This document shows positions 36,599 through 41,174 of a DNA stretch of 64,000 nucleotides, one piece after another. The notes beneath the pieces were generated by a model. It searched no databases, had not been told where the DNA came from, and was given only the letters and a program-made list of their open reading frames with translations. Each line of letters opens with the position of its first letter. Positions within the stretch are counted from its first letter, which is position 1. Location: the NCBI RefSeq assembly GCF_030013595.1, contig NZ_CP122768.1; one strand, given 5' to 3'. The stretch is from Escherichia coli. Its GTDB lineage: Bacteria > Pseudomonadota > Gammaproteobacteria > Enterobacterales > Enterobacteriaceae. The position numbers were made by a program, and so were the translations under genes.

Positions 36599-37312
36599 AT
36601 GAAGATTTTTTTGGAGAATCTTTATCATTCTGATTGCTATTTCCTGCCGATAAGAGATAACCAGCAAGACCTTGTCGGCGTTGAGTTAATTACCCATTTC
36701 TCCAGTGAAGATGGTACGGTTCGTATTCCGACGAGTCGGGTTATAGCGCAACTTACCGAGGAGCAACATTGGCAATTATTTTCAGAGCAGTTGGAATTAC
36801 TAAAATCATGCCAACACTTTTTTATTCAACATAAACTCTTTGCCTGGCTTAATTTAACCCCACAAGTGGCTACATTATTATTAGACAGGGATAATTACGC
36901 AGGCGAACTATTAAAATATCCGTTTATTGAACTGTTGATTAATGAGAATTACCCGCATCTCGATGAAGGAAAAGATAATCGCGATCTTTTGTCCTTATCG
37001 CAAATGTATCCCCTTGTTTTAGGTAATTTGGGCGCAGGCAATAGCACAATGAAAGCGGTTTTTGATGGTCTTTTCACCCGCGTCATGCTGGATAAAAGTT
37101 TTATTCAGCAACAAATCACGCATCGCTCCTTCGAACCGTTTATTCGTGCGATCCAGGCGCAAATTTCCCCATGTTGCAATTGCATCATCGTGGGGGGCAT
37201 TGATACGCCAGAAATAATGGCACAGATTACCCCCTTTGATTTCCATGCTCTCCAGGGATGCCTATGGCCTGCCGTTCCTGTAAATCAGATAACGACGTTG
37301 GTTCAGCGATAA
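36599..37312 (+). CDS. ydiV: EAL-like anti-FlhD4C2 factor YdiV
   Basis: 237-aa ORF recognised as YdiV. Confidence 0.85.
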   Translation: MKIFLENLYHSDCYFLPIRDNQQDLVGVELITHFSSEDGTVRIPTSRVIAQLTEEQHWQLFSEQLELLKSCQHFFIQHKLFAWLNLTPQVATLLLDRDNYAGELLKYPFIELLINENYPHLDEGKDNRDLLSLSQMYPLVLGNLGAGNSTMKAVFDGLFTRVMLDKSFIQQQITHRSFEPFIRAIQAQISPCCNCIIVGGIDTPEIMAQITPFDFHALQGCLWPAVPVNQITTLVQR

Positions 37313-37335: not shown

Positions 37336-38811
<1,476 letters not shown>

Positions 38812-38814
38812 AGG

Positions 38815-39006
38815 CTACTTGGTCAACAGCAGCTTGCCAGCCTGAGTTTTACGGAGCAGATATTCTTGCCCGTCATGATCGATAATCAGTTTGCCATCCG
38901 GACCTAACAGTGTCTGGCTGGTAATTCGCCGGATGGGCTGCGGGGAAGCGGTCTTGTGATTGGCATCCGTTTCAGGCGTGAGTTTTCTGCTATCCGTATA
39001 ACGCAT
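38815..39006 (-). CDS. ydiE: HemP-like small protein YdiE
   Basis: 63 aa starting at the internal [18 protein letters not shown]… of ORF 38815..39033. Confidence 0.65.
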
Positions 39007-39026
39007 AAAAATTAATAATAATTGAT

Positions 39027-39050
39027 ATAACAATGATTCTTATTATCAAT
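39027..39050. promoter_or_regulatory. candidate Fur box upstream of ydiE
   Basis: acaATGATtcTtATTATCa resembles the Fur consensus GATAATGATAATCATTATC; by-eye match only. Confidence 0.35.
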
Positions 39051-39137
39051 ATTATAGCGGGCCAGAGCAAGCAGTAATGTGTTGAGAAGACAACAAGTTG
39101 CGCAGAAATGCCCATTCCGTCAGGAATGGGCACGCAT

Positions 39138-40184
39138 TCAGAAGCGGGTATCTACCGCAGAGGCGAGTTTTTCGACCAGGCGTTCGGTATCTTCCCAGCC
39201 CAGACACGGGTCGGTAATCGATTGACCGTAAGTGAGCGGCTGACCGCCGACGATTTTTTGCGTTCCTTCGCGCAGGAAACTTTCCGCCATAATTCCAGCA
39301 ATCGCCGTAGAGCCATTGCGGATTTGCTGACAAATATCCTCACAAACTTCTAACTGGCGACGGTGCTGCTTCTGGCAGTTACCGTGGCTGAAATCCACCA
39401 CCAGATGTTCAGGTAAATCAAACTCGTGCAGCGTATCGCAGGCTGCGGCGATATCATCGGCATGGTAATTCGGTTTTTTGCCGCCACGCATAATAATGTG
39501 GCCATACGGGTTGCCGCTGGTCTGATAGATGGTCATCTGACCATTTTTGTCTGGCGAGAGGAACATATGGCTGGCGCGGGCTGCGCGGATAGCATCTACG
39601 GCAATCCGCGTGTTGCCATCGGTACCATTTTTAAAACCTACCGGACAGGAGAGTGCCGAAGCCATTTCACGGTGGATCTGACTTTCGGTAGTACGTGCGC
39701 CAATCGCGCCCCAACTGATTAAATCAGCAATAAACTGACCGGTCACCATATCGAGGAACTCAGTCGCGGTAGGAACACCCAGCTCATTTACCTGTAAAAG
39801 TAATTTGCGCGCCAGCTCCAGACCGTGATTTACCCGATAGCTGCCGTTTAAATCCGGATCGGAGATTAGCCCTTTCCAGCCGACAACAGTTCGTGGTTTT
39901 TCAAAATAGGTGCGCATTACGATTTCCAGCCGTGACTGGTACTGGTTGCGCAGCGACTGCAGACGGGTGGCGTACTCCATTGCAGCGGTGAGATCGTGGA
40001 TCGAGCAGGGGCCAATAATGACCAACAGTCGCTTATCTTCACCATTCAGTATTTTTTCAATTCTGCGGCGGGAGTCGGTGACATGGGTGGCGACGCCAGG
40101 CGTTACGGGATACCGTAGCGCGAGTTCGGCGGGCGTTACCAGGCTCTCAATACGCGCAGTACGGAGTTCGTCAGTTCTGTTCAT
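39138..40184 (-). CDS. aroH: DAHP synthase, Trp-sensitive
   Basis: 348-aa ORF recognised as AroH. Confidence 0.95.
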   Translation of the reverse strand: MNRTDELRTARIESLVTPAELALRYPVTPGVATHVTDSRRRIEKILNGEDKRLLVIIGPCSIHDLTAAMEYATRLQSLRNQYQSRLEIVMRTYFEKPRTVVGWKGLISDPDLNGSYRVNHGLELARKLLLQVNELGVPTATEFLDMVTGQFIADLISWGAIGARTTESQIHREMASALSCPVGFKNGTDGNTRIAVDAIRAARASHMFLSPDKNGQMTIYQTSGNPYGHIIMRGGKKPNYHADDIAAACDTLHEFDLPEHLVVDFSHGNCQKQHRRQLEVCEDICQQIRNGSTAIAGIMAESFLREGTQKIVGGQPLTYGQSITDPCLGWEDTERLVEKLASAVDTRF

Positions 40185-40340
40185 TACAAGTCTCAGAAAT
40201 TTGTTGCTTCTACGGCAGGACTACCGGGAAGTGATGCGCATCACGATAAACCAATCGCAGCTGATTTCAAGTGCGAGGTGTGTCACACCTCGCCGGGTGG
40301 TTAGCATGATAACAAAAAAATAAGCTAATGCACTAGTTCT

Positions 40341-41174
40341 CTAGTACATTCGACGGCTAAGGCCCATGATATCGAGGATCTTGGTGGCAATCTCTTCTAC
40401 CGAATAATTGGTACTGTTAATCCACGGGATCTGATTTTTACGGTACAACGCTTCCACTTCCGCGACTTCCATCCTGCACTGACGAAGCGAGGCATAGCGA
40501 CTGTTCTCCCGACGTTCCTCGCGAATCGCCGCCAGTCGTTCCGGGTCGATAGTCAGGCCGAACAATTTATGCTGAAGCGGTTTGAGCGACGCGGGTAGCA
40601 CCAGATTATCCATATCGTCGGCAATAAAGGGGTAGTTTGCCGCGCGGATACCAAATTGCATTGCCAGATACAGACTGGTGGGGGTTTTACCACAGCGAGA
40701 AACGCCGAGCAGGATCACCTGAGCCTGGTCCAGATTGCGCAACGAAATGCCATCATCGTGGGCGAGGGTGTAATCAATCGCCGCAATGCGCGCATCATAT
40801 TTATTGAGATTATTAGGGTTAAGGCCATGGGTACGATGAGCAATCGGCGTGGGATCCAGTTTCATCTCTTGTTGTAGCGGGGCAACCAGTGCCTGAACGA
40901 TATCCTGGCAAAAGCCTTCACTTTGCAAGATGATGGCGCGAATTTCCGGCAACACGATGGAGTAGAAGACCAGCGGGCGCACACCTGTCTGGTGATAAAT
41001 TGCGTCAATCTGATCCTTCACTGCCCGTGCACGGCTCTCATTTTCGACAAACGGCAGCGTAATGCTGCTGATAGTGACGGGAAATTGTGACATTACTGCG
41101 TGTCCTAATACCTCCGCAGTTATTGCCGTACCATCAGAAATATAAAAAACGTGGCGATCAACAGCATTATCCAT
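40341..41174 (-). CDS. ppsR: PEP synthase regulatory protein (bifunctional kinase/pyrophosphorylase)
   Basis: 277-aa ORF with P-loop (GVSRCGKT); divergent from ppsA. Confidence 0.9.

Follow-up and report, generated by a model that had tools for sequence, protein, structure and literature searches.

Organization of the aroH–ydiE–selO Locus

The DNA analyzed here is a window of 64,000 nt from the Escherichia coli chromosome (NZ_CP122768.1), in which the small gene ydiE lies between aroH and selO. According to RefSeq, the gene order is selO (plus strand), hemP (i.e., ydiE, minus strand), aroH (minus strand), and ppsR (minus strand). The ydiE coding sequence (39006..38815, minus strand) starts with an ATG at 39006 and encodes a protein of 63 aa. 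Upstream of ydiE lies aroH (40184..39138, minus strand), which encodes the Trp-sensitive DAHP synthase and ends with a TGA stop codon at 39140..39138. Both genes are located on the same strand and are separated by a spacer of 131 nt. On the other side, selO (ydiU; 37375..38811, plus strand) is convergent with ydiE, whereby 3 nt lie between the two stop codons. A 601-nt stretch of the chromosome around ydiE is 100% identical to the sequence of strain 118UI and was found in 5,422 of 5,426 complete genomes.

Related loci were collected by a scan of species-representative genomes, which yielded 13 loci (Escherichia, Citrobacter, and Salmonella). The alignment comprised 13 sequences, namely the window and 12 of these loci; locus L003 was left out as a 417-bp fragment that carries only ydiE and part of selO. 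L003 (NZ_POTZ01001146.1, 417 bp, coverage 0.8) is assigned to “Streptomyces sp. NTH33” and shows 98% protein identity to E. coli ydiE/selO; almost certainly, this contig reflects contamination of a Streptomyces assembly with E. coli DNA. The order of aroH, ydiE, and convergent selO is kept in the window and in all 12 full-length related loci, and no transport genes were found beside ydiE in any of these, the flanks being aroH and selO. Further upstream, a palindrome (AATGTACTAGAGAACTAGTGCATT) at 40327-40350, located upstream of aroH and just after the 3′ end of ppsR, was flagged as terminator-like in a consensus scan for promoters and terminators; its position is presumably that of the aroH TrpR operator.

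No Shine-Dalgarno sequence was found before the ydiE ATG (39007-39028, AATTATTATTAATTTTTATG). In Salmonella and Citrobacter the first ydiE ATG is variable, and S. arizonae does not have it. Therefore, a start 3–4 codons further downstream (ATGGAT) is probably used there. At the junction of ydiE and selO (38811-38815), no terminator-like site was detected 3′ of either gene for hundreds of nucleotides. The ydiE–selO pair has been described as an excludon, i.e., a pair with overlapping convergent transcripts (PMC12288877). We also considered that derepression of ydiE silences the convergent selO, but selO rises slightly in Δfur strains (log2FC +0.32 and +1.6) instead of falling, and this idea thus finds no support in the data.

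The ydiE Upstream Region Contains a Conserved Fur Operator

The initial annotation had proposed a Fur-box-like string just upstream of the ydiE start, and this string was recovered exactly (ACAATGATTCTTATTATCA at 39030-39048). The site was evaluated by 19-bp consensus matching, by shuffled sequences, by the suf site as a control, and by its cross-genus footprint. Matching to the consensus GATAATGATAATCATTATC placed the Fur box at 39029..39047 (minus strand; GATAATAAGAATCATTGTT) with an agreement of 15/19, whereby the ydiE ATG follows 22 nt downstream. This is the single best Fur-consensus match on either strand of the whole 64-kb window. It is overlapped by a second match with a 6-bp shift (39035..39053, minus strand; AATATTGATAATAAGAATC, 14/19), which is typical of overlapping hexamer arrays, and in the 7-1-7 form of the Fur site TGATAATAAGAATCA scores 12/14 at 39048..39034. 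Dinucleotide-preserving shuffles of the window led to an expectation of 0.18 sites with at least 15/19. When the 131-nt spacer was shuffled, 0.18% of the sequences reached 15/19, and for shuffles of its core alone, which consists of 83% A+T, this value was 1%.

As an internal positive control served a site ~180 nt upstream of sufA, the start of which is located just past the window end. Here, TTAGATAATAATCATTATCTAA at 63973-63994 forms a perfect 9-bp palindrome, and positions 63973-63991 match the Fur consensus at 14/19. Since the tables of Gao et al. (2023; PMC10164565) report a Fur ChIP-exo peak for sufA, this palindrome very probably corresponds to the suf Fur box that is already known. The sufA and ydiE sites resemble each other as palindromic consensus sites in a promoter region that are ChIP-exo targets, whereas the sufA site has the lower consensus score, the perfect palindrome, and the ~180-nt distance to its coding sequence. 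A further match with 14/19 (CAGAATGATAAAGATTCTC, 36614-36632) is situated within the first codons of ydiV/rflP (ATG at 36599). In BL21, ChIP-exo peaks annotated as “ydiU,ydiV intragenic” at ydiV +26 to +38, corresponding to window positions 36625-36637, overlap this match (PMC10164565).

In the alignment, all 13 sequences share TTGATAATAA-n-AATCATTGT without any change, whereas the flanking sequence diverges and contains insertions and deletions. Within the box 17 of 19 columns are invariant, compared to 18 of 90 columns (20%) of the spacer outside the box and the hairpin described below; taking the 13 related sequences as independent, the difference amounts to p = 1.6e-8 (Fisher test). Because the box is nearly invariant while the identity of the YdiE protein drops to 60% across the same set of loci, the ydiE operator shows a stronger conservation than large parts of the protein that it precedes, including the N-terminus of YdiE. 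For E. coli K-12 ydiE (b1705), which represents the same locus, the Fur box and the hairpin of MG1655 are base-identical to those of the window; K-12 differs by a CATAAT instead of the TATAAT upstream of the box and by four substitutions further upstream in the spacer. The ydiE locus of Salmonella Typhimurium (STM1346) shares the aroH–ydiE–selO synteny, the invariant core TTGATAATAAnAATCATTGT, and a conserved hairpin after aroH, but its box reads GATAATAATAATCATTGTG, its spacer has diverged and is of greater length, and the N-terminus of YdiE is only ~60% identical.

Binding of Fur to this region and Fur-dependent expression of ydiE have been published, whereas the sequence match, its rarity, the cross-genus invariance, and the hairpin structure come from the present analysis. 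By ChIP-exo and RNA-seq on nine E. coli strains, Gao et al. (2023; PMC10164565) defined a core Fur regulon of 36 genes, which includes ydiE. The supplements of this study list a peak “ydiE, intergenic, R” for MG1655, W3110, BL21, 042, Sakai, and CFT073. When the coordinates were mapped on the RefSeq sequences, W3110, BL21(DE3), 042, and CFT073 showed a 13-bp peak 20-32 nt upstream of the ydiE ATG, which corresponds to window positions 39026-39038 and overlaps the downstream half of the Fur box. The Sakai peak was left out of this positioning since its coordinates do not fit NC_002695.2, presumably because another sequence version had been used in the paper. In eight of the nine strains ydiE is 4.7- to 280-fold up in Δfur (log2FC Δfur/WT of +2.87, +8.14, +5.24, +2.91, +7.08, +3.20, +2.23, and +5.16), and the derepression parallels that of the ent, fep, and fhu genes (PMC10164565). 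The ninth strain is BL21, in which ydiE is slightly down in Δfur (log2FC -1.10) while Fur is still bound, an outlier that Gao et al. mention without an explanation (PMC10164565). Because ydiE goes down in BL21 Δfur, Fur binding alone is not predictive of the ydiE response. In Salmonella ydiE is 7.4-fold up in Δfur, and a Fur site has been predicted upstream of it (Troxell et al., 2011; PMC3212961); for earlier evidence from E. coli and Salmonella, Troxell et al. cite McHugh (2003), Bjarnason (2003), and Tsolis (1995).

Thus, the ydiE start codon is preceded, at a distance of 22-41 nt, by a genuine Fur operator in the form of an AT-rich block. The iron-responsive control suggested in the initial annotation is borne out by the published ChIP-exo and RNA-seq data (PMC10164565) and by the Salmonella Δfur data (PMC3212961), and the published Δfur expression does show a Fur-dependent change of ydiE. 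Fur control of ydiE is already known: reports of it date back to the early 2000s, and a study of 2023 confirmed it for nine strains with base-pair resolution. The ydiE Fur site of the window is hence the re-discovery of a documented member of the Fur regulon and carries little weight as a discovery.

A Conserved Hairpin Follows aroH

The second element of the spacer is a hairpin at 39110..39131 (minus strand), which starts 6 nt after the aroH TGA and has the RNA sequence GCCCAUUCC-UGAC-GGAAUGGGC. It consists of 9-10 perfect base pairs, six of them G-C, and a 4-nt loop. The centroid structure has a folding energy of -17.8 kcal/mol (z = -3.9), and none of 200 shuffled sequences folded as well. 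For perfect hairpins with a stem of 9 bp or more, simulation led to an expectation of 2.15 per window, compared to 19 overlapping calls at 10 places in the actual window. In 12 sequences covering all genera, 99.1% of the stem cells are paired, whereby the loop sequence is unconstrained. Seven of the nine pairs never vary and one pair runs from UA via UG to CG; with only two pairs varying, covariation in the stem was not distinguishable from that of shuffled alignments (52/500). Compared to the window, the hairpins of CFT073 and Sakai carry an A-to-G change (GGAATGGGC to GGGATGGGC), which results in a U·G wobble and keeps the pairing. In Citrobacter, the same change has become fixed in four of six loci.

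The tract 3′ of the hairpin (39102..39109, minus strand; AUUUCUGC) is a weak U-tract. It contains 4 U within 8 nt, which is under the scan threshold of 5 of 8, and no terminator was called. Of the 8 nt of the corresponding tail in S. diarizonae (AUUUCUUC), 5 are U, and pyrimidine-rich tails are common to all genera. An Rfam search of positions 38700-39300 (E <= 1) returned no RNA family, and thus the hairpin gave no sign of a riboswitch or a known sRNA element. A literature search for a report of an aroH terminator yielded nothing relevant.

The published RNA-seq data provide a view on transcription across the hairpin. In wild-type MG1655 aroH is ~25-fold above ydiE (about 276 vs. 11), and in wild-type W3110 the values are about 203 for aroH and 0 for ydiE; aroH itself is not Fur-responsive (log2FC -0.48 and +0.54; PMC10164565). 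As aroH RNA is far above ydiE RNA in the wild type, little or no transcription appears to cross the hairpin. This drop is consistent with a hairpin that terminates transcription efficiently or at least acts as an insulator. We therefore infer that it is a conserved intrinsic terminator of aroH with a weak U-tract. The initial annotation had reported a palindrome beyond the aroH stop and had counted it, together with the Fur-box-like string, in favor of iron control. The palindrome as such is exact (GCCCATTCC-GTCA-GGAATGGGC, i.e., GCCCATTCCGTCAGGAATGGGC), but at 39110-39131 it runs 6 nt past position 39125, where the reported region had ended. As support for iron control it falls away: if the hairpin is the aroH terminator, its only link to ydiE is insulation from read-through.

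Candidate ydiE Promoters and the BL21 Allele

A consensus scan for promoters and terminators returned no minus-strand promoter within the aroH–ydiE spacer. Its only hit there, a plus-strand match (ATAACA-17-TATTAT, 39027-39055), was discarded as a by-product of the AT-rich palindromic box. Three candidates for the ydiE promoter were considered, all on the minus strand. Candidate A is the -10-like hexamer directly upstream of the box (39051..39056), which reads TATAAT in the window, CATAAT in K-12, CFT073, and Sakai, CAGAAT in 042, and CATAAA in BL21. No good -35 region was found for it, and the hexamer is unconserved outside Escherichia and degenerate in Salmonella and Citrobacter. Candidate B consists of a -35-like TTGCTC (39065..39070), a spacing of 17 nt, and a GATAAT (39047..39042) that lies within the Fur box. 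Its CTTG, its GATAAT, and the gap-free 17-nt spacing are invariant in 13 of 13 sequences. The TTGCTC matches TTGACA at only three of six positions and was hence not reported by the consensus scan. Candidate C (39022..39049) is the predicted TTGATA-16-TATCAA that Shimada et al. (2014; PMC3946193) listed for the aroH>ydiE spacer from RpoD genomic SELEX, together with an H-NS flag; in this study the RpoD holoenzyme bound within the spacer. The TATCAA of candidate C is unconserved outside Escherichia. With each of the three predicted promoters, the Fur box would overlap or abut a promoter hexamer (-35 or -10) or the start site.

Evidence on which candidate is used comes from a natural variant. Over 161 nt, BL21(DE3) differs from MG1655 at one position, whereby CATAAT is changed to CATAAA in the last base of the candidate A hexamer. 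This T-to-A change of the E. coli B lineage is located at window position 39051, which is position 1733984 of NC_012971.2. The single-base change coincides with the only strain of nine that lacks ydiE derepression, although Fur binding is retained there. Of the 5,426 complete genomes, 60 contain an exact 80-mer with the CATAAA allele, and among the 25 matches listed all but a few are E. coli B derivatives (BL21, REL606, and relatives). The final T of -10 hexamers is highly conserved; its loss would explain the behavior of BL21, and for this reason the allele points to the candidate A hexamer as the working -10 in E. coli. The E. coli B lineage may thus carry a natural promoter-null allele of ydiE, which would account for the outlier of the Fur pan-regulon. 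If so, the working -10 would be identified and the Fur box would cover the transcription start. Fur regulon membership of ydiE being documented already, the suggestion that the CATAAA allele explains the BL21 anomaly and marks the working -10 is the only new element here. The BL21 variant offers a cheap handle on the architecture of the ydiE promoter, and it may represent a natural loss-of-expression background.

It might also be that, instead of the upstream (C/T)ATAAT, the invariant GATAAT of candidate B (TTGCTC-17-GATAAT), which lies within the Fur box, serves as the working -10, in which case Fur would compete with RNA polymerase for the -10 itself. The full conservation of candidate B and the degeneration of the upstream hexamer in Salmonella and Citrobacter speak for this arrangement. 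Against it stands the BL21 change, which falls into the upstream hexamer of the sole non-derepressed strain of the nine while Fur is still bound there, and which would merely affect position -16 of a GATAAT promoter. We regard the GATAAT as a serious candidate with a little less than an even chance.

Proposed Mechanism and Alternative Explanations

Taken as a whole, a genuine Fur operator at ydiE together with an aroH terminator that insulates ydiE is the best explanation, to which we assign a probability of roughly 90%. Under iron-sufficient conditions, dimers of Fe2+-loaded Fur would occupy GATAATAAGAATCATTGTT together with the hexamers that overlap it, in the block 22-41 nt before the ydiE ATG. 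Under every candidate promoter the bound Fur would overlap the core promoter or start of ydiE, and RNA polymerase would be excluded. Repression by occlusion is the mechanism to be expected because, whichever of the three candidates is used, the Fur box would coincide with part of the promoter or with the start site. Iron limitation or the loss of fur would relieve this repression of ydiE. The aroH terminator would stop TrpR-controlled aroH transcription from reading into ydiE, and as the hairpin would insulate ydiE from aroH, ydiE would constitute a separate, Fur-controlled monocistronic unit.

Two explanations would dispense with one of these elements. The Fur match might be incidental to an AT-rich, H-NS-bound spacer and the iron regulation indirect, e.g., via RyhB or another regulator. 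The base composition would allow for this, given the 83% A+T of the core and the 1% of core shuffles that reach 15/19, and so would the H-NS flag on the spacer (Shimada et al., 2014; PMC3946193). An incidental match would, however, leave it to coincidence that ChIP-exo peaks fall on the box in several strains, that the derepression in Δfur is large and parallels that of ent, fep, and fhu (PMC10164565), and that every base of the box is kept in three genera whereas adjoining AT-rich bases vary. We consider this scenario scarcely credible. Alternatively, ydiE might be transcribed mainly by read-through from aroH, whereby the hairpin, instead of terminating efficiently, would act as an attenuator that is either leaky or regulated. 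Such a model could draw on the same-strand arrangement of the two genes at a distance of 131 nt and on the weak U-tract, for which no terminator was called. It is hard to reconcile with the wild-type RNA levels, at which ydiE reaches ~4% of aroH in MG1655 and 0 in W3110, and with the 7- to 280-fold rise of ydiE in Δfur, during which aroH barely moves (PMC10164565); moreover, RpoD holoenzyme binds a promoter within the spacer (PMC3946193). Read-through as the main source of ydiE RNA is therefore highly improbable.

The nature of the hairpin allows for somewhat more doubt. Instead of an intrinsic terminator it might be a stem that protects the 3′ end after Rho-dependent termination or processing, or a palindrome bound by a protein. 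The 25-fold drop of RNA across the hairpin fits the intrinsic terminator and the processing or Rho variant alike. The poor U-tract and the missing Rfam match would agree with such a role, and the near-invariant stem sequence, with seven of nine constant pairs, also fits a sequence-specific recognition. On the other hand, the element shows the standard anatomy of a terminator, i.e., a position 6 nt past the stop codon, a G+C-rich 9-bp stem, a free 4-nt loop, and a pyrimidine- or U-rich tail in every genus, and the pair remains intact throughout the UA to UG to CG series. A function other than intrinsic termination is thus unlikely, and we keep to the reading of the hairpin as the aroH terminator.

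YdiE Is an Orphan Member of the HemP Family

The assignment of YdiE to the HemP family made in the initial annotation was confirmed by Pfam, in which residues 27-63 match hemP (PF10636) with 55.9 bits (cut-off 25) and E = 3.7e-15. The structure PDB 4YNX, named “YdiE”, differs from YdiE of the window at one residue, and PDB 2LOJ represents the Salmonella homologue. That the role of YdiE in E. coli is undefined, as had also been noted, agrees with Gao et al. (2023; PMC10164565), who refer to ydiE as a gene of unknown function. A position of ydiE at the head of a heme-uptake operon with a TonB-dependent receptor and an ABC transporter was not found in the window or in the 12 related loci, a trait that is not strictly defining for the family. 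YdiE is thus an orphan small protein of the HemP/HmuP family.

Two known systems are of help for comparison. The hemP–hemR region of Yersinia enterocolitica resembles ydiE in that a Fur-repressed promoter precedes a small gene of the HemP family (Stojiljkovic and Hantke, 1992, as cited in PMC3212961). According to the same citation, Yersinia hemP is the first gene of the heme-uptake operon hemPRSTUV, whereas E. coli ydiE stands as an orphan between aroH and selO. The HmuP/HemP/ChuP proteins of Ensifer, Bradyrhizobium, Burkholderia, Chromobacterium, and Stenotrophomonas share PF10636 and Fur control with YdiE (PMC9131926, PMC9241770). In these bacteria the relatives are small heme-binding regulators of heme-receptor genes, whereby the proposed mechanisms conflict and comprise transcriptional activation, post-transcriptional activation, and repression (PMC9131926, PMC9241770). 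Heme binding and receptor regulation have been demonstrated for ChuP/HemP (PMC9131926, PMC9241770), whereas YdiE is likened to them by family membership.

By analogy, YdiE could be an orphan, Fur-gated, heme-binding regulator of the HmuP type, and it might act in trans on mRNAs of TonB-dependent receptors, e.g., chuA in strains that carry chu. Enterobacteria retain ydiE behind an operator that ranks among the best-conserved Fur sites of the regulon, also in strains that lack a heme-uptake system. The combined proposal that the B lineage carries a promoter-null ydiE allele, that the working -10 is thereby identified, and that YdiE is a Fur-gated HmuP-type regulator is tentative, and we would put it somewhat below even odds. 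If the B-lineage and the HmuP-type readings are true, B strains and K-12 would provide a ready-made comparison for the function of YdiE.
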